Assembly (NCBI GenBank): GCA_045649345.1 | Contig: JAZRPS010000017.1 | Coordinates: 7,658-71,657 of the forward strand | DNA: 64,000 bases | Source of the DNA: Candidatus Enterousia sp. | Lineage (GTDB): Bacteria > Pseudomonadota > Alphaproteobacteria > Rs-D84 | Direction: 5' to 3' | Shown: positions 2,023 to 61,398 of the stretch, one piece after another | Position numbering within the stretch: position 1 is the first letter of the stretch | Layout: each line of letters starts with the position of its first letter | Position numbers and translations under genes: made by a program | Notes under the pieces: generated by a model | Seen by the model: the letters and a program-made list of their open reading frames with translations, nothing else | Database searches by the model: none | Told to the model about the DNA's origin: nothing

Positions 2023-2051
2023 TTGACAACAAAAGTTTGGTGATATATAGT
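2023..2051 (+). promoter_or_regulatory. Sigma70-like promoter of the PPase-like/Nudix/S51 operon
   Basis: TTGACA-N17-TATAGT, about 35 nt upstream of the ATG at 2087. Confidence 0.45.
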
Positions 2052-2086
2052 TGGATTATATCATTTTTTGCAAAAAGGATTTAATC

Positions 2087-2443
2087 ATGTCCGCAAATTC
2101 CAACATCGTCAATGCGCGTGATTTTCTGGGTAAAATCGTCAATGTACAAATGGACAGACCACTGGGCAGCAAACATCCAAAGCATGGTTTTACATACGAA
2201 GTGAACTATGGATTTATTCCGAACACAGTATCGGGTGACGGTGAAGAATTAGACGCATATGTATTGGGTATTGATACGCCATTGGCAACCTTTACCGGCA
2301 AATGCATTGCGATTATTCATCGCACAAATGACAACGATGATAAACTGATTGTTGTACCAGATGGACAAAATCCAACAAACGAATATATTGAACAAAAAAC
2401 CGCTTTCCAAGAACAGTGGTTCAAGCACACGACTATAAGATAA
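2087..2443 (+). CDS. Short inorganic-pyrophosphatase-like protein (about 118 aa)
   Basis: ATG at 2087 with SD aagga (the ORF track starts at TTG 2051). Motifs 'DRPLGSKHP', 'NYGFIP' and 'DGEELDAYVLG' resemble the family I PPase metal-binding signature. Confidence 0.6.
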   Translation: MSANSNIVNARDFLGKIVNVQMDRPLGSKHPKHGFTYEVNYGFIPNTVSGDGEELDAYVLGIDTPLATFTGKCIAIIHRTNDNDDKLIVVPDGQNPTNEYIEQKTAFQEQWFKHTTIR

Positions 2444-5408: not shown

Positions 5409-6428
5409 ATGCAAAGAACAGCAGAAGCAGTGTCTTTGGGACACCCAGATAAAGTCGCCGATTATATTTCCAGTTACATTTTGGATCGGTTAATAGAACA
5501 AGACCCACAAGTCAAATATGCCGTTGAGGTAATGATCAAGGACAACAATGTTGTCCTTGGGGGCGAAGTGACTACCTCTGCCCCACTCGGCAATTTGACC
5601 GCCTATGTTAAGGCTGCCCTTGCTGAAATCGGCTATGATGACCGGTACACATCAATATGGGGCGAATTGGCCATTAACCCAGCGCAAATAAATGTTACCA
5701 ATTTGATCGGCATACAATCCGCAGATATCAATCGTGGTGTTGCTGCTGACGGCTGGGGCGATCAAGGTGTTTTCGTTGGATATGCCTGCCAAGGCGAAGG
5801 AAAGATAAACAGGGAATTATTCCTAGCAAAAAAGCTGAATAAAGCCCTGTACGATAAAGCCCGTAAATCCGACAATCTTGGCATAGATATCAAGACACAA
5901 ATCACATTGAATGACGATAAGATTGAAACCGCTATCGTGGCAATACCAATGCTGCACGATGAAGATCTGACGGAATTTGTGATTTCTGTCCTAGGCGAGA
6001 AGCCAGCGCACATTATCATAAATGGCACCGGACGTTACACATACCATGGTTCCATCGCAGACTGTGGCATTACAGGACGTAAATTGGCCTGTGACTTTTA
6101 TTCAACCGCCTGTCCGATTGGTGGTGGCAGTCCATGGACAAAGGATGCTAGCAAGGCAGATTTGACCCTTAATGTCTATGCCCGTATCTTAGCTTGCGAA
6201 AATCTGGCTAACAACGACGAATGTTTTGTTTACCTGTCTTCGTGCATCGGACGTGCCGAACTGCCCAGTGGTCTGATAAAAACGATTAAGAACGGTATTG
6301 TTTCCTATCATGACTTATGGTGCAATCAGAAACCAAGCAACCTGATAAAGGCATACGGTTTAGATAAACCGATCTATGCAAAATTATGCGACAAAAGTAT
6401 ATCTGGTATTTTAGAAAATGCAAAATAA
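5409..6428 (+). CDS. Compact, divergent S-adenosylmethionine synthetase-like protein (339 aa)
   Basis: MetK motifs are present: 'GHPDKVADYIS', 'GDQGVFVGYA', 'ADCGITGRK', 'GGGSPWTKDASKAD'. It lacks the usual C-terminal GHFGR region and is about 45 aa shorter than E. coli MetK. Confidence 0.7.
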   Translation: MQRTAEAVSLGHPDKVADYISSYILDRLIEQDPQVKYAVEVMIKDNNVVLGGEVTTSAPLGNLTAYVKAALAEIGYDDRYTSIWGELAINPAQINVTNLIGIQSADINRGVAADGWGDQGVFVGYACQGEGKINRELFLAKKLNKALYDKARKSDNLGIDIKTQITLNDDKIETAIVAIPMLHDEDLTEFVISVLGEKPAHIIINGTGRYTYHGSIADCGITGRKLACDFYSTACPIGGGSPWTKDASKADLTLNVYARILACENLANNDECFVYLSSCIGRAELPSGLIKTIKNGIVSYHDLWCNQKPSNLIKAYGLDKPIYAKLCDKSISGILENAK

Positions 6429-7712: not shown

Positions 7713-9242
7713 TTAAAATGCGTATTTAAAGCCCAAGTGCAAACCAAATGATTGCCATGTTGCCTGCTTTAATGAGTCGCTAACTTTTTCTGTGTATGCC
7801 GCGACGGTTTCCAACAACGGGACATAGTATACATTTCCGTCTTCGCCAATAATTTCCTGCATCACATATTGACCATTTTCGTCCATGACGTATTGGCTGT
7901 ATTCTGCAATATATAGTTCGCCACCAATTTTACCAACGTGGAACAAGTTTGTATCAACCTTTAATGATAATTGCATACGATCGGAAATCTTATAATTATA
8001 CTCTAATTCTGCTGAATATGAATATGCGCCATTGCTGCCCTCATCTAAAAAGGATGGGTTTTGTTGCCAGTCGGTACGATTTGGCCATATCCCCTCAGAC
8101 GAATACTTTGGCAGACCAAATTGAACATACAAACGCAACTTGTCTTTTAGCGTCATTTGTTTTTCAACTTCCAGTCCGACAAAGAACCCAGACCATGTTG
8201 TGTTGTATTTGTGCGTTGTGCCTTCTACTATAACAGGACCGTCGCCGCCGATAATAACACATTCGCCGGCACTAACCCCCCACGGTATTGTCCCCATCGC
8301 AATTTCATAGTCGCCCGTCATCAGCGAATCGCCCAATACACCAAATCCTTCGTAATATCCAGATGGTGAATTTGTGACAATTTTAATGTCTTCTGGACTC
8401 ATACAAACCTGGTACCAGTCATCTGGTGCCTCTACCCCCACAGGGACAGAATAATAATTCCCCAGTTCGTCACCAAAAACATATTCGCCCAAATCTGTCA
8501 TCAAAGGCAAATATATACCAGGATTCGGGTAATAGTGATTTGACATTTCCAGGTTGTGCTTAAATATTTCATAACCAAATGTTGGCGACAATTTCCAACC
8601 ACCGATGTCCCAAATATGATGTGCAGATATGCCAAAGCGGAAATAGTTGCTGCGACCAGATTGATCACCCATTGAAATTGTAAATATTCCATACGCAGGG
8701 TCTGCATCGTCAAATGGTTTTAGGTCATAGTCCATGGATAAACCACCATGCGACATGCTGCCATAGGCATATTCGCCAAATACAGATAAGTCAAAACTGC
8801 GCAGGCTGAAATTATGGCGGGCGCCAACATGAATTTCGTTCCAAATCATGTCGTCCCATTCCAGTATGGAATTTACACCTGTTTCAAATTCAAAGTCTGC
8901 AAATCTGCGCGCATATTCTGCATACAGGGTCGTGGCAGGTTCTGCCGTTGTGGGCAACGCGATTCCATTGGCTGTCATTGTGCCTGATATTGTTGGCATT
9001 TGTGCGCGCGGAACCTGATATGAATAAGTCCGCGAACCAACAACCTGTTTGTTGCCAGATTTGCCAACATATTTTGTATAACCTTGGTCTGCATATCGAC
9101 CATAACCGGATTGATTTGCGTTTGGCGCAGATGATGTTTGATAATATGTCGGCACCCCTTCGTTTGCAGCAAATGCCACCAACGGCGCAAAAATCCCCGA
9201 TAAAAATGAAATTGTCCTTGCCTTCATCGTATAACGTTGCAT
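7713..9242 (-). CDS. Outer-membrane beta-barrel protein, family unassigned
   Basis: Signal peptide 'MKARTISFLSGIFAPLVAFA'. Alternating amphipathic strands. C-terminal 'GFKYAF' aromatic terminus. Confidence 0.6.
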   Translation of the reverse strand: MQRYTMKARTISFLSGIFAPLVAFAANEGVPTYYQTSSAPNANQSGYGRYADQGYTKYVGKSGNKQVVGSRTYSYQVPRAQMPTISGTMTANGIALPTTAEPATTLYAEYARRFADFEFETGVNSILEWDDMIWNEIHVGARHNFSLRSFDLSVFGEYAYGSMSHGGLSMDYDLKPFDDADPAYGIFTISMGDQSGRSNYFRFGISAHHIWDIGGWKLSPTFGYEIFKHNLEMSNHYYPNPGIYLPLMTDLGEYVFGDELGNYYSVPVGVEAPDDWYQVCMSPEDIKIVTNSPSGYYEGFGVLGDSLMTGDYEIAMGTIPWGVSAGECVIIGGDGPVIVEGTTHKYNTTWSGFFVGLEVEKQMTLKDKLRLYVQFGLPKYSSEGIWPNRTDWQQNPSFLDEGSNGAYSYSAELEYNYKISDRMQLSLKVDTNLFHVGKIGGELYIAEYSQYVMDENGQYVMQEIIGEDGNVYYVPLLETVAAYTEKVSDSLKQATWQSFGLHLGFKYAF

Positions 9243-37375: not shown

Positions 37376-37430
37376 TTCAAAACACACATGCAGTGCGTTT
37401 TGAAAAAAAATTGGCAGGGGCAGAAGGAAT
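37376..37430. repeat. Proximal copy (3' end of the intact tRNA-Trp plus downstream hairpin)
   Basis: ttcaaaacac-N9-gcgttttgaa-aaaaaaat-tggcaggggcagaaggaat. Confidence 0.75.
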
Positions 37431-37485
37431 CGAACCCTCATCCGCGGTTTTGGAGACCGATATTCTACCGTTGAACTATGCCCCT
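37412..37485 (-). tRNA. trnW: tRNA-Trp (anticodon CCA)
   Basis: Reverse complement: AGGGGCATAGTTCAACGGTAGAATATCGGTCTCCAAAACCGCGGATGAGGGTTCGATTCCTTCTGCCCCTGCCA. Cloverleaf folds, anticodon loop CUCCAAA, encoded CCA. Conserved position upstream of secE. Confidence 0.92.
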
Positions 37486-37650: not shown

Positions 37651-37680
37651 TTGCACCCCCTGGCATTTTTTGTCTACAAT
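37651..37680 (+). promoter_or_regulatory. Sigma70-like promoter of the virB8-10 operon
   Basis: TTGCAC-N18-TACAAT, about 25 nt before the GTG start, which has SD aagggggag. Confidence 0.4.
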
Positions 37681-37705
37681 CAACATAATCAAGGGGGAGA
37701 AAGTC

Positions 37706-38413
37706 GTGAAAAATCGCGTAGAACCGCCAATTTTAATATCAAGACTAATGACGTTTGTGTTGGCAGCGTCACTGGTTGTGTTGGGGGTGCTGGGCATGAC
37801 GATTATAAAAATGTTCCCATTAAACCGTCCAGAAGTTTTCTTTTTAACAACAGAACTTCGTGACAACCAAACTGTAAAGTTGGTTGAGATGCCGACAAAC
37901 GACTCTAATTTTGATTTGTATAAACAAACCTTTGTTCGCGAATATGTTAGACACAGAAACGACATATTTCCAAATGCAAAAGTTATGAACAAGAAATGGA
38001 ACGGCGTCGACGGGTTTGTTCGCATAACATCTTCGGACGATGTGTACAGTGACTTTACCAACACAAACATGTTTGTCGCAATTACCGGTGGTATGCCCGA
38101 TTTTGAATTTAGATGCGTTTCACAATTTGAAGGTGCGCCAGCATTATTAGAACGCGACGACAGGACACACGATGTATATCAAGTAAAAATGCAATATTTT
38201 TGTTCAGATAATACTGGACGTACACCACGAAAAGATTATACAATAAAAATAAAGTTAGCCGCAGACACAGATGCAAACGTTGTTTGGAAAGACCGCATTA
38301 GCAATCCATTAGGTTTGCGCGTAGAAGAATACGAAGTAACAAAAGTCACATCACAGGATGGTGACACACTTCAAACAGGCGATCCGTTGGACACGGGTTA
38401 TTTGCCGGAATAA
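37706..38413 (+). CDS. virB8: VirB8-family type IV secretion protein
   Basis: Short N-terminus, one TM helix (LMTFVLAASLVVLGVLGMTII), periplasmic domain with 'FVREYVRHRNDI' and the VirB8-typical 'NPLGLRVEEYEV' (NPxG) motif. The GTG start has a strong SD. Confidence 0.7.
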   Translation: MKNRVEPPILISRLMTFVLAASLVVLGVLGMTIIKMFPLNRPEVFFLTTELRDNQTVKLVEMPTNDSNFDLYKQTFVREYVRHRNDIFPNAKVMNKKWNGVDGFVRITSSDDVYSDFTNTNMFVAITGGMPDFEFRCVSQFEGAPALLERDDRTHDVYQVKMQYFCSDNTGRTPRKDYTIKIKLAADTDANVVWKDRISNPLGLRVEEYEVTKVTSQDGDTLQTGDPLDTGYLPE

Positions 38414-38440
38414 ACAAGAAAGAATAGAAGGATTGGTAAA

Positions 38441-39976
38441 ATGTTTGCAAAAGCCTTTAAGTTAAATATATCTATATTCTGCTTAGCAGGATTGTTGTGT
38501 ATGCCTGCATACAGCGCCGATGATATAGGTATGGCAGGTATACAAGAAGCATGGGACAACCCAACTGCAAACATGGCAGCCGGAAGTACAAAACCAGGAT
38601 ACGCACAATTGTCTTGGTCACCGGGTTCGGTTATACCGATTAAGTTGCGCAACGGTATGGTGACAATGCTGACGTTGCCAAATGGCGAACAAATTGCAGA
38701 TGCAATCATGGGCAACCAGGGATTATTTGATGTTGACGCAACACAGGGCGAACGTACAATGTTTTTGTCCCCTGTGGGCAGCAACCAAGGATCTGATACA
38801 AATATGATTGTGACAGGCAAATCAGGAAACAAATATATATTTTATCTGCGTGCAGAACCATCTAATTCCAGCGAAATTACATATTCCCAGGTTGATGTTA
38901 TATTAGACGGGAATGGTGTGTTGCCAAACGCAGGCACGACCGCAACAACATCAGGTGGCGCAAAATCTATATTTCAAAAATCTGCGCCTGCGTCCACAAT
39001 GGTTGGTTCCGATGGCGAAGATTACGGATGGATAAAATCAATGAAAATCGATCCATCTGAATTCAGATTTGACCTGGACATATTTGTTCCAAATCCAGAT
39101 GACTATGTAATTGCACCAGAACGCGTATGGCGCGATCGTATCTTTACATACATCGACTTTGGTGACAAGGTTATATCGATGACGCAACGCCCGGTGGTAT
39201 CACTGATGGTCGAAGGTGGCGAATCGCCCGTTGGATTCCGCACAGATGGCGAAGACGGCAGATTGTTAATTGTAGAGGCAGTTGGTGACATGGTACTGCG
39301 CAGTGGGCAACGTATTGTTTGCATCAAAAAACGTGAAAAACCATTCTTAATCGCAGACACAGCATCTGTTATGGCACTGGCAGAGGCAAACGTTGCGCAA
39401 AGCATGCTATCAGGTCAGTCGCTGAACAACATTGCATACACAGACAGTATGGCCGCGATGAGCATGGGAACAAACTATACAGGAACACCTGTGTTTGTTG
39501 GCAACAATACAACGGTCAATCAGACAACAGGCGCCGGATACTATATGCCGGCAGGATACGGCATACCACAGACAACACCGTCATCTGGCAGCGTTGTTAA
39601 CATGTTGCCAACACAACGTAATACGGCAGGGGCATATTTACCGCAAACAAATATACCACTGATTTCCAGCAACCAATCAGGCGTTGCGGTTGAATTAAAA
39701 TCTGATACGTCCGTCAAGGCGCTGAATGATTATTGGACGAATCTGTTGGCGAAATTTAGTGGCGAAGAAGGTCAAGGTTTGTTAACGCCATACAAGGATA
39801 TGGTATTCTTTGCAGTTGATGAACAAGGTGTCGGTGACCTGGGGGCAGATTCAAAAACAGCACGCCAATACCGCTTGCGCATTGGACCATTGGCAGATAT
39901 CGATACAGCGCAAACGCTGTGCGACAAGCTGTTAAAGTTTAGTGGCGTCAGTTGCAACGTTGTAAGAATGCAATAA
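38441..39976 (+). CDS. virB9: VirB9/CagX/TrbG-family protein with a low-complexity linker and a C-terminal SPOR domain
   Basis: Signal peptide. N-domain: 'IPIKLRNGMVTMLTLPNGEQIADAIMGN...TNMIVTGKSGNKYIFYLRAE'. C-domain: 'PERVWRDRIFTYIDFGDK...PVVSLMVEGGESPVGFR'. Residues 413-511 are SPOR-like: 'YRLRIGPLADIDTAQTLCDKLLKFSGVSCNVV'. Confidence 0.75.
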   Translation: MFAKAFKLNISIFCLAGLLCMPAYSADDIGMAGIQEAWDNPTANMAAGSTKPGYAQLSWSPGSVIPIKLRNGMVTMLTLPNGEQIADAIMGNQGLFDVDATQGERTMFLSPVGSNQGSDTNMIVTGKSGNKYIFYLRAEPSNSSEITYSQVDVILDGNGVLPNAGTTATTSGGAKSIFQKSAPASTMVGSDGEDYGWIKSMKIDPSEFRFDLDIFVPNPDDYVIAPERVWRDRIFTYIDFGDKVISMTQRPVVSLMVEGGESPVGFRTDGEDGRLLIVEAVGDMVLRSGQRIVCIKKREKPFLIADTASVMALAEANVAQSMLSGQSLNNIAYTDSMAAMSMGTNYTGTPVFVGNNTTVNQTTGAGYYMPAGYGIPQTTPSSGSVVNMLPTQRNTAGAYLPQTNIPLISSNQSGVAVELKSDTSVKALNDYWTNLLAKFSGEEGQGLLTPYKDMVFFAVDEQGVGDLGADSKTARQYRLRIGPLADIDTAQTLCDKLLKFSGVSCNVVRMQ

Positions 39977-39994
39977 AAAAGTACTAAGCACAGT

Positions 39995-42406
39995 GTGGGT
40001 TCAAAAAAAATGAAAAAAAATTTAAAACAGCAGTTTTCAGAATTGCGCGAAACAACACCAAAGTATATCCAATGGCTGTTGCTGGGGGTTGCGTTTATTG
40101 TGGTGCTTATACTGCTGACGTTGTTATTAAGTGGTGACGACAATGATGCACAAGCAGAAGTCGAAAAAACTGATACCAAGATTCCAGAACTGACCATTGA
40201 ACCCGCACAAATAAAGTGGACAGATATTGTTGTTGGAACCAAAGAAACACAAGTCATACGTATCGTATCAAATATTCCTGTCACAATACTATCAACCGGT
40301 CAAAACAAACAGGTTGACGGTTTTTCAATGAAAGAAACATGCACAGGAATAAAACAAATAAACAAAGGCATCGGATGTCAAATTAACGCAACATATCAAC
40401 CAACAAAAGCACAGGAAAATGTCGAAATAGATTTATTAATCGAATGGCATAATGCAAGCACAAAAAAAGAAACAGCGCATACAACCAAGGTGCCTGTTGT
40501 GTTGAGCGCAAAAATGCCGCCAGAAGAAAAAAAACCAGAACCTGTTGTTGTACCAGAACCAGTCGTTGAACCGGAACCAGAGCCTGAACCAGAACCTGTT
40601 GTTGAACCGGAACCAATCAAAGAAGTGGTCGAAATAATCGCGCCACCGATTGTTATCCCTGAACCAGAGCCAGAACCAACACCATCAGAGGCATGTTCAG
40701 ATTTTGCGTTCCCTGGGTATAATCTGTCGGGGCGTCAGATTGGTTGGATAAAACCATCTAGGGGGGCATATAAATTTCATCCATTTTCAGACAAAAACTG
40801 TGAAGATCCAACAGGAACATACAATCCTGATAACGGCATTATAACGGATGAAGCCGGCAAAAAAATCGGAACCGATGCAGACCACATTGGTTATGCGGCG
40901 TTCAATGGTGGCGTATTGCCAGAATTGTCAAACACACCTGCAATCCGCAAGGTCAATCGTGCAAGACAATTGGACGCCCCAACTAACAGTGGTGGCATGG
41001 GACGCGTCGGTCCAAGCGGTCAAGGGTTAGTAAAACCAACCACGAAAAAAGATGTCACATTTGACACAACCGGTACCGCTGTTGTTTCAACACAGCCATA
41101 TGACCGCAGCTTTGTTTTACGTCAATTTAAACCGATTCCAGCCACAATCGTATCTGATGTACGCGCAGATATAGAAATGTTGAAGAGCGAGGGTTCATTG
41201 CCGGTACGCGCAACCGTCGACAGAAATGTGTATTCAGATAATGGCCGCACCGTTATTATCCCAACAGGTACATTGTTGATGGGATATGTGACAGGCAAAA
41301 TCCCGGGGCCATACAAGACAATTGGACGTATGGAAATCAAATGGTATCAGTTTATATTACCAAACGGTGTTGAATTTAACTTTGAAGAAGGTCAGGATCC
41401 ATTTTCAGCCGATGCACAGGGGCGCGTGGGCGTACCGGGGCGTGGCAGTTCGGATTATCTGGAACAGTTTGTCATGCCAATGCTGACCGCGTTTGTACCG
41501 GCAACAATTAACCTGATTAATCCGGTTGCGGATGCATTCGTAAATCAGATTGATTTGGACAACAATACAGTTGTTCAAAGTGGTACAATGCGTTCTTCGG
41601 AATTAGCGAAAAATGAAATTATTACGGCATGGAACAGTGTTGCACAGAAATTGATGGTTGATATGATGGATAACACCGTACCGCCATTTACAATTCCGGC
41701 GGGCACACGTATAACCGTTTATTCACCGGTGGATTTGCAGGTTGCATGTGAAGAAGATGAAAAAGATTGTTCTTTGAAAAAATTAGGAAAGGAGCCAAAT
41801 AACAGACGTCGTGATTGGGGTGCAAATGGCACTAATAATGCAAATGTAGTGGCATCGGATGACATATCATCATGGGTTGGGCAGGCACGTTCATGGGCAA
41901 CAGCGTCCGGATTTCAGCAGTTCTGTAACAACAAAGACAACGGAATATGGCGCGTCAATCCTGAATGTGCCGGTCTTTCAAGTGACGGCACTAGTGCCAC
42001 GGGGGAATTAAATAGTTGTGGTGGTTATTCGTATAGCACACTGAAATTATTGTGTGAATCATTAAACTATCAATCGAAAAAGGCGTTGCAATATGATGCA
42101 TATCGCGAAGATCAAACGCAACAGTATCAAGAACAGTATGGGACAAAAGACAACAGGACAGAAGAACAGCAGACCGCATACAATGAAATGATTGGAATTA
42201 AATATGATGACGAAGGTCACGTTGTAAATCCATACGCCAGTACGTCAACAGAAAAGGTTGTGGAAGAAGTTGGTCTGTTGTGCGAGGACGGCACACCACC
42301 AGATGGCAACGGTTGCTGTACAGGTGAAATTTACACCGATATGGGCGAACAAGGATTTAACTGTTGCCCACAGACGGGTGGTGACTGCTTCCCACCGTTG
42401 ATATAG
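39995..42406 (+). CDS. virB10: VirB10/TrbI-family protein with an N-terminal Ig-like module, a PE-rich linker and a 220-aa Cys-rich C-terminal extension
   Basis: TM helix. A predicted beta-rich module spans about residues 65-165. Linker 'PEPVVVPEPVVEPEPEPEPEPVVEPEP'. TrbI core 'VRATVDRNVYSDNGRTVIIPTGTLLMGYV...RMEIKWYQFILPNGVEF...DAQGRVGVPGR'. The tail has 12 Cys. GTG at 39995 or ATG at 40010. Confidence 0.8.
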   Translation: MGSKKMKKNLKQQFSELRETTPKYIQWLLLGVAFIVVLILLTLLLSGDDNDAQAEVEKTDTKIPELTIEPAQIKWTDIVVGTKETQVIRIVSNIPVTILSTGQNKQVDGFSMKETCTGIKQINKGIGCQINATYQPTKAQENVEIDLLIEWHNASTKKETAHTTKVPVVLSAKMPPEEKKPEPVVVPEPVVEPEPEPEPEPVVEPEPIKEVVEIIAPPIVIPEPEPEPTPSEACSDFAFPGYNLSGRQIGWIKPSRGAYKFHPFSDKNCEDPTGTYNPDNGIITDEAGKKIGTDADHIGYAAFNGGVLPELSNTPAIRKVNRARQLDAPTNSGGMGRVGPSGQGLVKPTTKKDVTFDTTGTAVVSTQPYDRSFVLRQFKPIPATIVSDVRADIEMLKSEGSLPVRATVDRNVYSDNGRTVIIPTGTLLMGYVTGKIPGPYKTIGRMEIKWYQFILPNGVEFNFEEGQDPFSADAQGRVGVPGRGSSDYLEQFVMPMLTAFVPATINLINPVADAFVNQIDLDNNTVVQSGTMRSSELAKNEIITAWNSVAQKLMVDMMDNTVPPFTIPAGTRITVYSPVDLQVACEEDEKDCSLKKLGKEPNNRRRDWGANGTNNANVVASDDISSWVGQARSWATASGFQQFCNNKDNGIWRVNPECAGLSSDGTSATGELNSCGGYSYSTLKLLCESLNYQSKKALQYDAYREDQTQQYQEQYGTKDNRTEEQQTAYNEMIGIKYDDEGHVVNPYASTSTEKVVEEVGLLCEDGTPPDGNGCCTGEIYTDMGEQGFNCCPQTGGDCFPPLI

Positions 42407-42426
42407 TGGCACGACAAATATAAACG

Positions 42427-42453
42427 CCCCACCATCTGGTGGGGTTTATTTTT
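42427..42453 (+). terminator. virB10 intrinsic terminator
   Basis: ccccaccatctggtgggg followed by tttattttt. A second GC hairpin (gcgcgc-aatgtg-gcgcgc plus a T-run) lies at about 42506-42535. Confidence 0.7.
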
Positions 42454-42570
42454 AATAAGCAAAGGATTGTTTATATCATGAAATGTTTTTATTTATATTC
42501 TTTTTTGCGCGCAATGTGGCGCGCTTTTTTTTATCAAATGGTTGATATAGCGAACTGGGATTATGGTTAA

Positions 42571-42720: not shown

Positions 42721-43062
42721 ATGACATCTACGTTATCAATTACAATGCCGGAAAAATTTCAATCAGCGGAACAAATGTGGTTCTGGTTTTTATATTCAAA
42801 ATCTGTACGTAATGGTTTTTCCCGCGTACATGTGCGCCAAACGCGCAGGCCATGCGAAATTCTGGACGTTGAAACACTGATAACAAAATTGTATTTATCG
42901 GGGAAATTAACAGATGAACAACTGGCGGTTATGAAAGAATTTGGCGATAAACGACGCGCACCACATCAATATATTTGGAATGAAAATCGCGCCGCACAGC
43001 AATGGGCAACTGCAATGTCTGTTTTACACGATGCATGCACAAAACGTGGGTGGATTGAATAA
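42721..43062 (+). CDS. Hypothetical protein (113 aa)
   Basis: Strong SD (aaaggagaaag). No motif I can assign. Confidence 0.5.
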   Translation: MTSTLSITMPEKFQSAEQMWFWFLYSKSVRNGFSRVHVRQTRRPCEILDVETLITKLYLSGKLTDEQLAVMKEFGDKRRAPHQYIWNENRAAQQWATAMSVLHDACTKRGWIE

Positions 43063-43137: not shown

Positions 43138-43482
43138 ATGATAATCGTTGCATTTTCTGATAAAACATCAAAGATTTTACCACGCGTGTTCTGTGGAAAA
43201 TGGAAACACGTTGCACCAATTGTTGCAGTAAACGACAATCTGATTATGTATCAGTTTGTACGCTGTGGGCGCGTTGAAAAAATAAGTTTAAAAATGCGTG
43301 ATATAAAAATCCTGCAATCGTATGGATGGCGGTTTGTATATTTGCCATGCGCCCTGCCCCATGATTTTAACCCAAAAGATGCGAAAACATGTGTTGAAAT
43401 GACCAAGCGCGCCATTGGAATTCAGTGCTGGCATCTGCAAACGCCGGGGGCATTATTTCGGCATTTGTTGCGATATGGATGA
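43138..43482 (+). CDS. Hypothetical protein, possibly a permuted papain-like (NlpC/P60-superfamily) hydrolase
   Basis: 114 aa. His-before-Cys arrangement ('WKHVAPIV' ... 'TCVEMTKRAIG') is reminiscent of permuted NlpC/P60 (YiiX-like) enzymes. This is a weak call. Confidence 0.4.
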   Translation: MIIVAFSDKTSKILPRVFCGKWKHVAPIVAVNDNLIMYQFVRCGRVEKISLKMRDIKILQSYGWRFVYLPCALPHDFNPKDAKTCVEMTKRAIGIQCWHLQTPGALFRHLLRYG

Positions 43483-49168: not shown

Positions 49169-50380
49169 CTAATGAAAAATATAACTGTCAATATTGTTTG
49201 CATCGGCGGCAGATTTAATTTCGCGCGCGCGCACCTCTGACAAACCGTATGCACGAACACGGAACATGCCGGTACCTGTTGGTTCAACAACCGCATTTAT
49301 ACCAATTTTATTTTTTATATTTTGCACATGTCTGTTTGCCGCATCGCGTGATGAGAATGCACCGAATTGAACACCAGCACCGCCCCCATTACCACCAGTT
49401 GCCACACTTGGCGCAGACGGCTGATACTGTGGCATTGCATTCGCCGTTGCAGAATTATACGCATTTGCAAACGTTGTTGTTTGCGCCGATTGTACGGGCG
49501 CCTGATACGTTGGTTGGGTGTATACAGGTTGAACCGGCACACTTTGCACAGGCGGAACATACGTTGTTTTTTCAACAGGTTGCGCACCAGTGTTTAACAT
49601 TGTAAAACCCTTGGTCAACATTTGTGCCGCGACATTTGCACGAACATCTTTGTTTTCTGCACCCAATATGACAGACATAACATGACGATTGTCACGATGT
49701 GCAGTTGCAACCAATGAATATTTAGACTTTTTAGTATATCCTGTCTTCATACCATCGCAACCATTAAAAGAACTTAACAACCGGTTGCCATTTGTATAGG
49801 TTTTGCCGTTATACGTCCAAGACTTGATACCAAAATAATGCCAATATTTTGGAAAATGTTTGTATACCGCCATTGATAGCAATGCAATATCACGCGCGGT
49901 TGACATATGATCATCATTTGGCAGACCAGACGAATTTTCAAAATTTGTATTCGACAACCCGATTTCACGCGCAACACGCGTCATCAATGTTGCAAAGGAT
50001 TCTTCCTGGCCACCTTTTAGGTTTTCAGCCAAAACACGCGCAACGTCATTTGCACTGTATACCGCGACAGCCTTTATCGCGTCTTCGACCCGGATTTTCG
50101 ACCCAGCCGGCAAGCCCAATTTTACAGGTTCGGCATTTGCCGCAGATTGTGAAACAATTAAATAATCATCAAGATTCAAACGACCATGTTCCAACGCATC
50201 GAATGTTAAATATAACGTCATTATCTTGGTTAGACTGGCCGGATAATTTAGTTGATTTGCATTTTCCTGGTATAAAACACGACCGGTATCCATATCAGCA
50301 ACCAAAACCGCACGATATTGCGCACCATACGCAGTTGCAGACATCATTACAGCAAAAAGAGGCAAGAATATTCTTCTCAT
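49169..50380 (-). CDS. dacC: D-alanyl-D-alanine carboxypeptidase (S11, PBP5/6-like) with a C-terminal SPOR domain
   Basis: 'SLTKIMT' (SxxK), 'SSGL' (SxN-like), 'KTGYT'. The C-terminus 'GVQFGAFSSRDAANRHV...MFRVRAYGLSEVRAREI' is SPOR-like. Confidence 0.85.
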   Translation of the reverse strand: MRRIFLPLFAVMMSATAYGAQYRAVLVADMDTGRVLYQENANQLNYPASLTKIMTLYLTFDALEHGRLNLDDYLIVSQSAANAEPVKLGLPAGSKIRVEDAIKAVAVYSANDVARVLAENLKGGQEESFATLMTRVAREIGLSNTNFENSSGLPNDDHMSTARDIALLSMAVYKHFPKYWHYFGIKSWTYNGKTYTNGNRLLSSFNGCDGMKTGYTKKSKYSLVATAHRDNRHVMSVILGAENKDVRANVAAQMLTKGFTMLNTGAQPVEKTTYVPPVQSVPVQPVYTQPTYQAPVQSAQTTTFANAYNSATANAMPQYQPSAPSVATGGNGGGAGVQFGAFSSRDAANRHVQNIKNKIGINAVVEPTGTGMFRVRAYGLSEVRAREIKSAADANNIDSYIFH

Positions 50381-50469
50381 ACGTGGTATGTTAGTAAAAA
50401 AACGCGCAGTGGGTCAATACCTTTATTTCTTGGTTGCGACAATGGCGCTTTAAATCCTATACTAAAAAC

Positions 50470-52380
50470 ATGCGCGATTGGTTTGAAAATCAGTATCAAA
50501 ATATATTTCTGTACGTGCCATTTTTATTGGCAGGTGGTGGTGCGTTATATTTTTCAATCGCAAACGAACCAAGTTTAATTCTGGCACCATTTGTGTTCAC
50601 AGCAATGATTGCATCACTGTTTATAAAACGAACACCAAAGATTATTCGTGGAATCTTAATATTTCTGTTTGGATTTTATTATGCGGCAATTTTTACACAC
50701 GCAATAAATACACCACAACTGAAACACGACATTCATAACGTTGATATTATTGGAAATGTAAAAACAATCGACTATACAGACGATAAAATACGATTATATC
50801 TGAATACATCAGACAACATGAACGTTCGCATTTCTGTATCAGATGACACAACACAAATTCCCAAAGTTGGCGACACTGTAAAAATAAACGGCGGATTATT
50901 TAAACCAAATGCAGCCGACGCACCAGAAACATTTGACTATGCACGTTGGTCGTATTTTAATAATTTGACAGCATCGGGCTATGCAAATGAGATTGAAATA
51001 ATTTCATCGAACAAACCATCTGGGATTAATGCACTGCGTGACAATTTGCACAATAAATCAAATTCATTCTTGGCGGACAGTTTGATATTAGGCTATAAAA
51101 ATGCTGTCCCAGAAAACGATGTGTCAATATGGACCGCCACAGGCGTCGGTCACATATGGTCAATCAGCGGATTTCACATGACATTGGTTGGCGGTTGGTT
51201 GTTTGCTATATTCTATCTAATATTCCGTGCGATACCGTATATCACACGACGCATACCTGCAAAAATCCCAGCAATGGGATTGGCATGGTGTGGGTTGCTG
51301 TTTTATTTATTCTTGTCGGGCGTTGATGTTGCAACAGTTCGTGCATTCCTGATGACGACATTAATCTTTCTTGCATTTATGGTTGGACGCAGTGCGATTT
51401 CAATGCGAAATATTGCACTGGCATTTTGTTTAATATTTTTAATCAACCCACACTATGTTATGCAGGCGGGTTTTCAATTGTCTTTTTCTGCGGTATTTGG
51501 ATTGGTATGGCTATATTCCGTTATAAAACCAAAGATGCCGCAAAATAAAATACTAAAAATAATTTATGCGTGTATTCTGACATCACTGATCGCAACAATA
51601 TTTACCGCGCCATTTGTCGCAATACATTTCGGCGCAATTCCAACATACGGCTTGATTAGTAATTTGATTTTATTGCCAATATTTTCATTTGCGATTATGC
51701 CACTGGTATTAATCGGAATAATTGGCGCATTGTTTGGATTTCATGGCGCGCTGAATTTGGCGCACACAATTTACGATTACGCGTTTAATGTTGCAGAATG
51801 GATTTCACAAATGCCGTTTGCAAACATAAATGTGCCACACATACCAAATACCGCAGTCGTATGTTTTGTTATCGGATTTATGTGTCTGATACTGATTAAA
51901 AATATAAAGACACCCATAAATATTATTTTGTTTTCTGTATTCATTACATTTGGCGTATTAATTGTACACTTTGCCCCACGTCCAATATTCTATGCAACAG
52001 GTGACCACGAACTGGTGGCATTCTTGCGCGATGATGGAATTCTGGAATTTAATAAATCGCGTGCATCAAATCATTATTTTACATTTGACACGTGGAAGAA
52101 AATAAACAACCAATCTGTTGACACACCAAATCATAGACGAAAACACGTTCGTGGCGTATATAAATTTGGCAATATTGTTTATATACAAAAATTCGTACCA
52201 CTGATGAAAAATATAACCCAATTATGCAATGACAATGGTGTTAAATATATCGTTTCTTATTTCAAAATTGATTCGCCGAAATGCAATCACAAAATACTGC
52301 ATGATGGATTTGTTATATATCCCAGTGGGCGCGTAAAATATACGCCGGTTAAACGTCGCTGGCATAATCTGCGCGTATAA
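50470..52380 (+). CDS. comEC: ComEC/Rec2-family DNA internalization channel protein
   Basis: Polytopic membrane protein with an OB-like N-terminal insert and a competence-domain TM core. First ATG at 50470. Confidence 0.78.
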   Translation: MRDWFENQYQNIFLYVPFLLAGGGALYFSIANEPSLILAPFVFTAMIASLFIKRTPKIIRGILIFLFGFYYAAIFTHAINTPQLKHDIHNVDIIGNVKTIDYTDDKIRLYLNTSDNMNVRISVSDDTTQIPKVGDTVKINGGLFKPNAADAPETFDYARWSYFNNLTASGYANEIEIISSNKPSGINALRDNLHNKSNSFLADSLILGYKNAVPENDVSIWTATGVGHIWSISGFHMTLVGGWLFAIFYLIFRAIPYITRRIPAKIPAMGLAWCGLLFYLFLSGVDVATVRAFLMTTLIFLAFMVGRSAISMRNIALAFCLIFLINPHYVMQAGFQLSFSAVFGLVWLYSVIKPKMPQNKILKIIYACILTSLIATIFTAPFVAIHFGAIPTYGLISNLILLPIFSFAIMPLVLIGIIGALFGFHGALNLAHTIYDYAFNVAEWISQMPFANINVPHIPNTAVVCFVIGFMCLILIKNIKTPINIILFSVFITFGVLIVHFAPRPIFYATGDHELVAFLRDDGILEFNKSRASNHYFTFDTWKKINNQSVDTPNHRRKHVRGVYKFGNIVYIQKFVPLMKNITQLCNDNGVKYIVSYFKIDSPKCNHKILHDGFVIYPSGRVKYTPVKRRWHNLRV

Positions 52381-56027: not shown

Positions 56028-56630
56028 CTAGGCATCTTTTCGCATGCCGGTTTTTTTATCAATCCAGACCTGTTCGTCGGCGATTTCCATCATTGGCATG
56101 TCTGATTTACTGTCTGAATATGCGCGGACAACATGTGGGATTATTTTGTTTTGTTTCGCCCATTCGTCCATAACATTTACCTTGTTTTTACCCCAGCACA
56201 AGAATTCATATTTCCATGGTTTTTTGCGATTCATGCGCGAACAAAATACCGCATCAAATTTCATATCACGAACCAAATGTGGCAACAGATAATCTGCACA
56301 TGCAGAAACCATTATCACACGGCGACCGGCATCACGTTCCGCGGCGACACGTTCACGCGCCCAGCCAAAACGTTCACGTTTGTGTTGCTTAATAAACGCA
56401 GGCGCAAATTTTTTTACCATTTCCGGCGTTGTAAAGCGACGAATATTTTCGCGCCACCAGATACCGTCTGGTTTAACCCAGCGACAAACACCACAAATCG
56501 CCATCAATGGCAAGAATAACCATGGGCGCAGACTGTGTCGGAAACAGTATTTTGCAAATTCAACATTTGAATCGCGCGCGGACAATGTGCCATCAAAATC
56601 AAATAAAACAACATCTGTCTTTTTTAACAT
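56028..56630 (-). CDS. HAD-IB family hydrolase
   Basis: 'VVLFDFDGTLS' motif I and 'YSDSKSDMPMM' motif IV-like. Confidence 0.7.
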   Translation of the reverse strand: MLKKTDVVLFDFDGTLSARDSNVEFAKYCFRHSLRPWLFLPLMAICGVCRWVKPDGIWWRENIRRFTTPEMVKKFAPAFIKQHKRERFGWARERVAAERDAGRRVIMVSACADYLLPHLVRDMKFDAVFCSRMNRKKPWKYEFLCWGKNKVNVMDEWAKQNKIIPHVVRAYSDSKSDMPMMEIADEQVWIDKKTGMRKDA

Positions 56631-56734
56631 TTACATACCTTTTGTTATCTGTGTGGGCGGATTATAACAACATTTTTATTGTATCGCAAATTTTATATCG
56701 CTATACTTACAAACAACAAGGACAGGAATGCGAT

Positions 56735-57691
56735 ATGAAAAAGATTTTAACATCAGTTTTTATTTTAGCATGTTGTATGGGTGATAGTTTTGGGGCGAAC
56801 TATTGTTATCCGCAAGATATTGCCGATCTACGAAACAGCTATAGCGGCTGGACTTTTTGGATTTCTAGCAATTGCGAAAGAAATAATAATACAACTTCTG
56901 CATGCTATAATAACGAATGTTCCTCCTCAAAACAAGGTAGCGTCGACGAACCGTGTAGTAATGCGCCTGCACTCACAGCAAGAAAAAACTATTTATTTGA
57001 TACAACAACACAAAATTTAGACGAAGCTAATAAAAAAATAGACGTAAGTTGTGCATGCGCTCTAAATACAACCAACTATCTGTGTTCAGCAGGTTATTAT
57101 CGAGCTGGCGACAGCATTAAATATACATCTGATACAACGAAAAATTGTTCTACGTATAGTTCAGGCTGTGAAAAATGTCCAGACGAAAGTATGATTTCTG
57201 CTGTCGGGTCAACCGATATCAGTGCTTGTAAATGCCCAGAAAAGACATATAGGAGTACAAACGACAAAGGCAATTATATATGTAATACTTGTCCGAATGG
57301 ATCGAATACGACAGTAACTGGCGCAACAAAATTAAACGACTGCAAATGTCCTGCGGATCAGTATATGGGCAAGGACAACAATGGTAAAGATGCGTGCCTA
57401 TCCTGTCCGACAGATACAACGTCCGCGGTTGGTTCTGATGATATAGATGACTGCAAATGCCCACAAGGTTTTTATATGAAAGCAGATAAAAAAGGCTGTG
57501 CACCTTGCCCCGAATATATAAATACAAAAGATCCTGGATATGACAAAGACGATCCAGACTCAGCTAAGGCCAATACCACAACCACATCTTATGGTGCGAA
57601 ATCGATACAAGAATGTTTTATACCACAAGGTACCGAATTCTGTGATGAAAAGGGTTGTGGTACGTACACCGATAATGCCGGTCACAACTAA
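56735..57691 (+). CDS. Secreted cysteine-rich repeat protein (eukaryote-like GCC2_GCC3/furin-like CxCP repeats)
   Basis: Signal peptide 'MKKILTSVFILACCMGDSFGA'. Seven CxCP motifs (CEKCP, CKCP x3, CNTCP, CLSCP, CAPCP) at regular spacing. Confidence 0.62.
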   Translation: MKKILTSVFILACCMGDSFGANYCYPQDIADLRNSYSGWTFWISSNCERNNNTTSACYNNECSSSKQGSVDEPCSNAPALTARKNYLFDTTTQNLDEANKKIDVSCACALNTTNYLCSAGYYRAGDSIKYTSDTTKNCSTYSSGCEKCPDESMISAVGSTDISACKCPEKTYRSTNDKGNYICNTCPNGSNTTVTGATKLNDCKCPADQYMGKDNNGKDACLSCPTDTTSAVGSDDIDDCKCPQGFYMKADKKGCAPCPEYINTKDPGYDKDDPDSAKANTTTTSYGAKSIQECFIPQGTEFCDEKGCGTYTDNAGHN

Positions 57692-60795: not shown

Positions 60796-61398
60796 TTATT
60801 CTGCAATCTTGACCTTGGTTCCGGCATCGACATGTGACAAAATCACAATATCGCCGTCATTTAAGCCAGATGTTATGTATGCGTTTTGTGAATCTTGACG
60901 CGAAACAGTGACCGAACGACGTGTCGCGATACCATTATCGATAACAAGAACTGTGTTGTCATTGCCAACCGCATATGTTGGCACAAAATAACCGTTGCCA
61001 GCAAATTCTGCATAGTGCAAACCATCAGATACACCACGCGTCTGAACAACGTACATGCCTGTATCTAAATCAACACCAGACGACACAGACACAATTACAC
61101 CATCGTCAACAGATTGCCCTGCGCGCAATTTTTTTGCATTCGCCGCAGATACGTATGCACGATTGTTTCGAACCGCAATCGGTTCACGCACAACATCGCG
61201 TACCTTGGCGACATTGATGACCGATACAGGAACACCAGAATCCGCCGCGACACGCGTCGCATTGTATACATTTCTGGAATTTTCAGATGCGATTGCATAA
61301 AAACGATACCCAACCCAGAAAACCAACACAATTGCCAAGACAATATACGTCCACTTTTTAAATTTTTCCGATGCGAATTTGCTTTTTATTTTTTCCAT
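60796..61398 (-). CDS. Minimal periplasmic adaptor (MFP-like, 200 aa)
   Basis: N-terminal TM, then beta-rich segments. C-terminus 'AYITSGLNDGDIVILSHVDAGTKVKI' is typical of MFP membrane-proximal domains. There is no room for a lipoyl domain or alpha-hairpin. Confidence 0.55.
   Translation of the reverse strand: MEKIKSKFASEKFKKWTYIVLAIVLVFWVGYRFYAIASENSRNVYNATRVAADSGVPVSVINVAKVRDVVREPIAVRNNRAYVSAANAKKLRAGQSVDDGVIVSVSSGVDLDTGMYVVQTRGVSDGLHYAEFAGNGYFVPTYAVGNDNTVLVIDNGIATRRSVTVSRQDSQNAYITSGLNDGDIVILSHVDAGTKVKIAE

Follow-up and report, generated by a model that had tools for sequence, protein, structure and literature searches.

The Rickettsiales-vir-homolog (rvh) type IV secretion system (T4SS) is a P-type system that is encoded on the chromosome and vertically inherited in reduced alphaproteobacterial genomes, with the gene order virB8-virB7-virB8-virB9-…-virB10-virB11. 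The core complexes of the conjugation systems of pKM101 (TraN/O/F) and R388 (TrwH/F/E) contain homologs of VirB9 and VirB10 and need a VirB7 lipoprotein; in pKM101, assembly of a core complex across both membranes does not require the ATPases. The ComB system of Helicobacter pylori is a T4SS derivative without VirD4 or VirB11 that works together with ComEC, and its comB8-9-10 operon sits apart from comB2-4. In Bartonella, the Trw system is a T4SS that is reused for adhesion without a coupling protein, and in H. pylori, CagY is a VirB10 homolog with a recombining variable region. Here, we analyzed a virB8-virB9-virB10 operon in a 64,000-nucleotide stretch of DNA from Candidatus Enterousia sp. 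(assembly GCA_045649345.1, contig JAZRPS010000017.1, positions 7,658 to 71,657 of the forward strand; hereafter the window, with its first letter as position 1). Sequence comparison firmly indicated that the operon is a reduced descendant of a P-type/rvh-like T4SS, and, equally firmly, that its products are the counterparts of the proteins that build the outer-membrane core complex and its inner-membrane collar in solved systems.

The Enterousia operon resembled the rvh system in being alphaproteobacterial, chromosomal, vertically inherited and part of a reduced genome, and the rvh-type gene order was present in sister lineages of Enterousia. Unlike rvh, it has a single VirB8 and lacks VirB7 as well as an adjacent VirB11 or VirD4. 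In addition, a SPOR domain is present on its VirB9, and an Ig domain and a hypervariable, cysteine-rich extension on its VirB10. VirB9 and VirB10 homologs are shared with the pKM101 and R388 core complexes, and the fold of the VirB9 N-terminal domain (NTD) matched that of TrwF; however, the two plasmid complexes belong to complete, VirB7-containing conjugation machines, and sequence identity to them was very low (E-values of 0.014-0.2 in the PDB). Bartonella Trw differs in that it keeps all VirB parts and that its variable parts are the pilus proteins, and CagY varies in a repeat array within the middle part of the protein and not in a C-terminal segment. The closest annotated VirB9 in the plasmid collection (39.6% identity over residues 31-298) was encoded on plasmid p1 of Sphingosinicella sp. 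BN140058, in the same order B8-B9-B10. That locus is, in contrast, plasmid-borne and encodes a MobA/MobL relaxase, VirB11, a VirD4-type coupling protein and an 806-aa hypothetical protein at the usual position of VirB4. No description of the operon, of the clade of VirB9-SPOR proteins or of the sister loci with giant beta-flower proteins was found in the searchable literature.

The operon consisted of three co-directional open reading frames (ORFs) on the plus strand, at 37670/37706-38413, 38441-39976 and 39995-42406, separated by intergenic gaps of 27 and 18 nt. Including the promoter-like site and the terminators it spanned 37651-42533, and the coding trio occupied ~4.7 kb. The features of the operon and its upstream neighbor were as follows:

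37412-37485, minus strand: tRNA-Trp, the sole RNA gene of the window

37651-37680, plus strand: promoter-like site (TTGCAC, 18 nt, TACAAT), read directly from the sequence

37706-38413, plus strand: virB8-like gene, 235 aa from the GTG at 37706 (longest ORF from the TTG at 37670); PF04335

38441-39976, plus strand: virB9-SPOR gene, 511 aa, with signal peptide, VirB9 NTD, VirB9 C-terminal domain (CTD), linker and SPOR domain

39995-42406, plus strand: virB10-like gene, 803 aa (798 aa from an alternative, database-called start at 40010)

42426-42533, plus strand: two intrinsic-terminator-like hairpins with T-runs (42426-42445 and 42507-42524), 3' of virB10, from the terminator scan

A first reading of the DNA without database searches (the sequence-only reading) had seen a promoter, three tightly spaced genes and two terminators as an operon. 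The ORFs, the short gaps and the hairpins agreed with this, and the promoter was left as plausible only. The -35 hexamer of the promoter-like site lies at 37651, where that reading had started the operon, with the ribosome-binding site (RBS) GGGGGAG and the GTG at 37706 downstream of it. The promoter scan of the region did not list TTGCAC-18-TACAAT and listed an overlapping weaker site instead, CTGGCA-18-CATAAT at 37660-37689. As promoter-like sites were no commoner in the region than in shuffled sequences (19 found, 16.3 expected), an operon promoter at 37651 is plausible and unproven.

The proposed homologies to VirB8, VirB9/CagX and VirB10/TrbI all held, with Pfam scores above the cut-offs. 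The VirB8-like protein matched PF04335 with 31.2 bits (cut-off 23.2) over profile positions 17-212 of 213, and an NPLG motif was present in its translation. Its true start is likely the GTG at 37706, behind the RBS. A single membrane helix and a VirB8 domain in the periplasm were predicted for the protein, and only ~6-12 N-terminal residues would remain as a tail in the cytoplasm; the tail of ~40 residues that is expected before a bitopic VirB8 helix was not found in Enterousia VirB8. According to hydropathy, the transmembrane helix started at residue 7 in Enterousia and at residue 13 in another lineage with the trio only (described below), compared with residues 43-53 in all eight VirB8 copies examined from complete sister loci. 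The longest conceivable tail, counted from the preceding stop codon, had a median length of 26 aa (62 loci). In the structure of R388, the outer VirB4 subunits are held in place through the N-terminal tails of VirB8 (PMC12857230). The loss of the tail in both trio-only lineages, a small sample, would be expected if VirB4 were gone.

The VirB9 protein matched Pfam CagX/VirB9 (PF03524) with 76 bits (cut-off 34.2) over residues 56-297. Three domains were delimited in it:

38600-38905, plus strand: VirB9 N-terminal beta-sandwich, residues 54-155; AlphaFold2 (AF2) predicted local distance difference test (pLDDT) 74-82

39026-39415, plus strand: VirB9 CTD and the following helix, residues 196-325, from the conservation profile and invariant columns

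39677-39973, plus strand: SPOR-type peptidoglycan-binding domain, residues 413-511, from Pfam PF05036, AF2 and Foldseek

In Foldseek searches, the NTD matched the NTD of R388 TrwF/VirB9 (7o3t_B, E 1e-9, TM-score 0.78; 8rt6_v, TM-score 0.81). Residues 201-320 were 93-100% identical across 58 aligned sequences. The Pfam SPOR model scored 20.6 bits on the window protein, just under its cut-off of 21; it matched 40 of 41 VirB9 homologs (best E 9.5e-6) and also seven of 11 outgroup proteins. The region was predicted to fold with beta-alpha-beta-beta-alpha-beta topology (AF2 pLDDT 66-80), and the C-terminal region matched the SPOR domains of RlpA (6i09, TM-score 0.71) and DedD in Foldseek. From profile matches and models together, the SPOR domain on VirB9 is real, and its binding to glycan is a prediction. 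No paper combining VirB8, VirB9 or VirB10 with SPOR was found in the literature searched.

The VirB10 protein matched Pfam TrbI/VirB10 (PF03743) with 65.8 bits (cut-off 35) over residues 381-577, and more than 900 VirB10-like homologs of ~780-830 aa were found. Its parts were the following:

39995-40132, plus strand: cytoplasmic tail and inner-membrane helix, residues 1-46; the helix starts near residue 21 by hydropathy

40175-40519, plus strand: ASH/PapD-like Ig domain, residues 61-175; AF2 pLDDT 77-89

40520-40690, plus strand: proline-rich (PEPEPV) linker, from the translation, with an 18-nt tandem repeat inside

41078-41740, plus strand: TrbI/VirB10 barrel domain, residues 362-582

41777-42274, plus strand: hypervariable segment of the C-terminal extension, residues 595-760

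42275-42403, plus strand: conserved cysteine-rich tail, residues 761-803, with C763, C774, C775, C790, C791 and C798 invariant

In the cytoplasmic and membrane N-terminus, P22, Q26 and W27 were invariant. The Ig domain matched the ASH domains of CEP192 and HYDIN in Foldseek (E 3e-5 to 5e-4) and, weakly, the NCBIfam choice-of-anchor D model; its column identity was 20-39%. The tandem repeat in the linker (40533-40615) had a period of 18 and 4.6 copies (Tandem Repeats Finder), and a conserved beta-rich segment (residues 233-300) lay between linker and barrel. Residues 401-580 of the barrel were 80-95% conserved, and long helices (487-516 and 535-559, pLDDT <50) occupied the place of the outer-membrane antenna in solved VirB10 structures. 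The barrel was followed by a C-terminal extension of ~220 residues (583-803) with ten invariant cysteines, the last 40 residues of which showed 72-88% identity. Both the Ig domain and the cysteine-rich C-terminal extension on VirB10 are real. The cysteine-rich tail was also considered as a sorting signal, which was rejected, as neither the window nor the related loci contained a paralog. For the VirB9 CTD and the VirB10 barrel, the AF2 models were of low confidence, probably since these regions are near-invariant in the alignments, and no structural conclusions were drawn from them. The NCBIfam equivalog models scored far below their cut-offs, with 52.1 bits for VirB9 against P-type TIGR02781 (cut-off 217.7) and 55.1 and 50.2 bits for VirB10 against the VirB10 and ComB10 models NF038091 and NF038092 (cut-offs 220 and 300); the trio proteins are therefore divergent members of their families.

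The remaining ORFs of appreciable size in the window were all compared with Pfam. As the sequence-only reading had stated, no other T4SS gene was present in the 64 kb: the scan returned no VirB4, VirB11, VirD4 or VirB6, and the window held no small membrane ORF resembling VirB2, VirB3 or VirB7. There was likewise no ComB2, ComB3, ComB4, ComB6 or ComB7 and no relaxase, coupling protein or integrase in it. The other ORFs encoded housekeeping functions, among them rpoBC, ribosomal proteins, nusG, yidC, lspA, recR, ksgA, comEC, aminoacyl-tRNA synthetases and an AcrB efflux pump. At ~70 related trio loci, with ~10 kb of flank each, no other T4SS genes were found either. The result covers these flanks and the 64 kb, the latter being ~7% of an Enterousia genome.

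The ComEC encoded in the window (50434-52380) raised the question of DNA uptake as in H. pylori, in which case the trio would carry double-stranded DNA across the outer membrane to ComEC, for transformation or nucleotide scavenging. The best PDB sequence matches of VirB10 were ComB10 of H. pylori (2bhv, E 5.5e-4) and CagY, the ComB10 model of NCBIfam scored about equal to the VirB10 model, and some homologs are named ComB9 by the Joint Genome Institute. In H. pylori, comB6-10 also lie apart from comB2-4, and mosaic alleles (see below) imply that recombination takes place in the Enterousia genomes. However, ComB needs the ATPase ComB4 and further comprises ComB2, ComB3, ComB6 and ComB7, it lacks SPOR and Ig domains, and the 50 bits against the ComB10 model compare with a cut-off of 300. 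ComEC is moreover widespread and neighbors the trio in only a few of the related loci, and the nearest relatives of the operon are rvh-like loci or conjugative P-type loci with VirB11 and VirD4. The window ComEC is compatible with DNA uptake and nothing ties it specifically to the operon; we regard a ComB-like role as improbable.

To place the locus in its group, one genome per species was scanned, and the VirB10-like protein was found, nearly always in full length, in 63 species-level genomes. These are labelled Candidatus Enterousia, "Alphaproteobacteria bacterium" or, for metagenome-assembled genomes from termite guts, "Rickettsiales bacterium", and come from ruminant, bird, mouse, human and termite guts. 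VirB8 and VirB9 were called in nearly all loci long enough to contain the trio. The gene order around it was conserved: rpoB … L11-nusG-secE-tRNA-Trp, then B8-B9-B10, the two small ORFs and yidC-lspA-kefB-ksgA-recR-dacC(SPOR). Wherever the upstream flank was readable, the trio adjoined secE-nusG-tRNA-Trp, except in locus L061. The GC content of the operon was 0.44, compared with 0.40-0.45 in the flanks. Given the conserved order and unremarkable GC content, the locus is chromosomal and vertically inherited. An origin from a mobile element such as a conjugative plasmid or an integrative and conjugative element was ruled out by synteny, composition and gene content, in line with the core-chromosomal site that the sequence-only reading had proposed.

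The median identity to the window protein was 80% for VirB9 (60 related loci), 78% for RecR, 76% for KsgA, 65% for YidC, 52% for VirB10 and 49% for VirB8. VirB9 evolves slower than yidC, recR and ksgA and faster than nusG and the ribosomal proteins. The most variable parts of the trio were the Ig domain of VirB10 (61-180), VirB10 residues 581-760 and most of VirB8. These rates are firm grounds for regarding the operon as functional and under strong purifying selection. Incomplete T4SS remnants are common in genomes and the gene set is incomplete here, which could point to a decaying, functionless leftover of an ancestral T4SS or a conjugative element. The VirB10-like gene is, however, full-length in nearly all 63 genomes and accompanied by VirB8 and VirB9 in nearly all loci of sufficient length. 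VirB9 also surpasses YidC and RecR in conservation, and the operon has a fixed place on the chromosome, with normal GC content and no relaxase or integrase. Enterousia genomes of ~0.9 Mb, with coding densities of 81-94%, do not retain 4.7 kb of junk. As the trio is conserved, decay is effectively refuted, and we consider it highly improbable.

The derivation of the operon became apparent from its relatives. An exhaustive VirB9 search gave 480 clusters. Outgroups with 37-52% VirB9 identity had the same VirB9-SPOR architecture and the same CTD motifs (APERVWRD and PVGFRT), and the genomic context was examined for eight outgroup loci. Five sister loci from gut Alphaproteobacteria (L068/69, L070, L071, L075 and L076) contained a complete rvh-like system, and the VirB9-SPOR fusion was present in all five. 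Their gene order was VirB4, at least four ORFs, VirB8, a 62-aa lipoprotein, a second VirB8, VirB9-SPOR, a protein termed X here, VirB10 and VirB11. The sister VirB4 (810 aa, CagE_TrbE_VirB) was seen only at the edge of L071, as the other loci do not extend that far upstream. The ORFs between VirB4 and the first VirB8 included one of 1280-1570 aa, and the lipoprotein between the two VirB8 copies had a lipobox and was VirB7-like. Protein X (1100-2000 aa) had an inner-membrane anchor, a weak ASH domain and beta-flower repeats, and the giant VirB10 (1400-1750 aa) had a signal peptide, beta-flower repeats and a C-terminal TrbI domain. VirB11 was present where the locus or contig extends far enough (not in L076), with 75-79% identity between the sister lineages, and L075 had a further ORF of at least 592 aa. 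The function of VirB10 appears to be split in the sister loci, with anchor and ASH module on X and the TrbI barrel on a separate protein. The giant proteins were rich in beta-flower, DUF3659 and RHS-like repeats, and no description of them was found in the literature searched.

With these sister loci (L068-L071, L075 and L076) the Enterousia operon shares the VirB9-SPOR fusion, the CTD motifs and an ASH module behind an inner-membrane anchor. The sister loci differ in that they also encode VirB4, VirB11 and a VirB7-like lipoprotein, have VirB8 in two copies whose tails measure ~45 residues, and carry the anchored module X and the TrbI module as separate giants. Compared with the complete sister loci, Enterousia is thus without the VirB7-like lipoprotein, one VirB8 copy, a separate X gene and an adjacent VirB11. 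Residues 19-172 of Enterousia VirB10 were homologous to the N-terminus of X and residues 362-593 to the C-terminus of the sister giant VirB10, both with modest E-values from a small database. By these homologies, the Enterousia VirB10 is a compact protein that combines the two sister modules in ~800 aa, and its hypervariable C-terminal extension is lineage-specific.

The VirB9-SPOR fusion is a trait of the whole clade and therefore no mark of a stand-alone machine. The sequence-only reading was correct that both large subunits carry extra domains (SPOR on VirB9, the Ig domain and C-terminal extension on VirB10). For VirB9-SPOR, its use of such a domain as a sign of a new machine failed, because the same fusion occurs inside complete sister T4SS loci with VirB4 and VirB11. 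Ordinary components with the same architecture in relatives, which that reading had named as speaking against its idea, were found in part, namely a VirB9-SPOR common to the complete sister loci. Its comparison with Rickettsiales was apt in that the sister loci show the Rickettsiales-type gene order, and missed in that the host belongs not to Rickettsiales but to the order Rs-D84.

A second lineage, GCA_016735385.1 (L072/L073, also GCA_016735395.1), had B8-B9-B10 alone, beside rpsB-tsf, and a third contig (L074) had only B9-B10, preceded by the gene of a ribosome hibernation factor. Reduced gene sets are therefore confined neither to one lineage nor to one genomic setting. The trio of the L072/L073 lineage was followed by a 135-aa protein with a signal peptide. 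No publications citing the trio-only assembly GCA_016735385 were found.

The sequences of the operon further pointed to exchange of alleles between lineages. In the comparison of the window with the closest species (L005), the flanks showed 96-99% DNA identity, and identity fell to 60-85% at 37750-41200, a stretch that comprises virB8, the 5' part of virB9 and the 5' half of virB10. Between loci L021 and L038, neighboring housekeeping proteins were 98% identical, compared with 86% for VirB8 and 75% for VirB10; VirB10 residues 601-760 fell to 18-44% in blocks of 40 residues, with 32% for the segment as a whole. For this hypervariable segment, the nearest relative of L021 was L019 (73%) and not L038 (32%), which disagrees with the nearest neighbor by housekeeping proteins. 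Such divergence inside near-identical flanks is impossible by neutral mutation in place and points to allele exchange between lineages, diversifying selection, or both. The pattern suggests that the VirB10 C-terminal segment recombines and that the virB8-virB10 mosaic arose by allele replacement. The compared genomes are metagenome assemblies, in which chimeras could contribute to the mosaic, but the pattern recurs in several independent pairs.

Taken as a scaffold, the trio could be arranged as follows. VirB10 would be anchored in the inner membrane by its N-terminal helix, its proline-rich linker would cross the periplasm, and its TrbI barrel with two antenna helices would form the outer-membrane pore. 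VirB9 would form periplasmic rings around VirB10, pinned to the peptidoglycan by the SPOR domain where other systems use the VirB7 lipoprotein, and VirB8 would form a collar on the inner membrane. As VirB7 is not present, its role may be taken by SPOR or by the cysteine-rich tail of VirB10. The core is under very strong purifying selection, the peripheral modules (VirB8, the VirB10 Ig domain and the C-terminal segment) diversify, apparently by recombination, and the scaffold would serve the partner-dependent life of Enterousia.

That Enterousia has lost the ATPase-driven translocation parts and that the scaffold works alone, as a cell-wall-anchored conduit or attachment structure, is the reading that we prefer, with about even chances of being right or wrong. 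We infer the absence of motors elsewhere in the genome, and likewise the assembly, topology and function of the complex. A more specific version, to which we give somewhat less than even credence, is that Enterousia and at least one other lineage shed all ATPases, the pilus and the inner-membrane channel, and that the trio is an essential, peptidoglycan-anchored, motor-less complex across both membranes, which could act as a gated conduit or partner-attachment organelle and in which the variable VirB10 segment could set partner specificity.

Several points weigh against a motor-less scaffold. To our knowledge, all functional T4SSs described to date possess a VirB4 ATPase, so that a motor-less form would be unprecedented. 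Only ~7% of an Enterousia genome was covered, the VirB8-tail correlation comes from only two trio-only lineages and five complete-system loci, and the invariant P22, Q26 and W27 of the VirB10 cytoplasmic tail could mark an inner-membrane partner. Given the low-confidence AF2 models of VirB9 and VirB10, pore and rings are suggested by homology. The VirD4-less systems Ptl, ComB and Trw also keep their VirB homologs, including VirB4, according to a review.

One alternative is an ordinary, scattered T4SS, with VirB2, VirB3, VirB4, VirB6, VirB11 and possibly VirD4 encoded elsewhere in the ~0.9-Mb genome and with effectors or DNA delivered into a partner or host cell. In Rickettsiales, the T4SS genes are dispersed among several loci, as the sequence-only reading had stated, and in the sister lineages a VirB9-SPOR of the same architecture is part of a complete machine. 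An essential secretion machine would be consistent with the extreme conservation of the core and would benefit a partner-dependent lifestyle, and the cytoplasmic tail of VirB10 is conserved. On the other hand, VirB11 directly follows VirB10 in the sisters and in Rickettsiales, and two terminators stand there in Enterousia; VirB7 and the VirB4-binding tail of VirB8 are missing, and no T4SS gene was found in the rest of the 64 kb or in the variable flanks of the ~70 related loci. The readable published genome analyses of Enterousia and Rs-D84 likewise contain no mention of a T4SS, which is weak evidence. We consider a scattered system a serious possibility that is nevertheless more doubtful than probable.

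Several neighboring genes were also examined. The two small ORFs 3' of the operon (42721-43062 and 43138-43482, plus strand; 113 and 114 aa) were kept in 52 and 50 related loci, with median identities of 68% and 51%. They were dropped as T4SS parts, being separated from the operon by the two terminators, inverted in L067, absent in some species and related to no family in Pfam, NCBIfam or PHROG; probably they form a unit of their own. In L008 (6584-15994) and L028 (minus strand, 3' of virB10), the block of small ORFs and yidC was replaced by a cluster of uncharacterized genes that included a 1163-aa protein and a 437-aa protein weakly matching the PilV shufflon N-terminal (type IV pilin-like) region. 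No T4SS genes were found in the variable flanks of the species with broken synteny, two of which showed this weak PilV-like match. A D-Ala-D-Ala carboxypeptidase (Peptidase_S11) with a C-terminal SPOR domain (49169-50380, minus strand) was a second SPOR protein near the operon and part of the syntenic block of most species.

Further from the operon, a 394-aa protein (56507-57691, plus strand) had an ephrin-receptor-like cysteine-rich domain and a 509-aa protein (7713-9242, minus strand) matched the Protochlamydia outer membrane protein (Pom) family (E 2e-10); from these matches, both are candidate envelope or surface proteins. The inorganic pyrophosphatase ORF (2051-2443, plus strand) encoded only 130 aa with a partial domain, and the S-adenosylmethionine synthetase (5409-6428, plus strand, 339 aa) matched its three Pfam domains weakly, two of them below cut-off; these two ORFs may be degenerate or divergent. 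A 200-aa ORF without Pfam match (60796-61398, minus strand) lay between the AcrB-type pump and an outer-membrane efflux protein, a position at which one would expect a membrane-fusion protein (~350-400 aa).

Enterousia, of the order Rs-D84, has genomes of ~0.75-1.0 Mb that lack the tricarboxylic acid cycle, respiration, upper glycolysis and standard transporters, and has been proposed to live in dependence on partners (PMC12306168). Members of the genus and of the order are common in guts, have not been cultured and have genomes <1 Mb (PMC12306168), and the operon with its slowly evolving VirB9 is a prime candidate for the organ of this dependence. If the motors are elsewhere in the genome, the operon would still document a large clade of T4SSs in gut Alphaproteobacteria that has not been described before and in which SPOR anchors VirB9, together with sister systems that contain giant beta-flower proteins and a hypervariable VirB10 module that recombines and resembles CagY in this. 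Should the motors be absent, a T4SS core complex would be retainable for a function of its own, and the operon would be the first motor-less functional T4SS descendant and a natural minimal system for core-complex assembly, VirB7-independent SPOR anchoring and VirB10 gating.

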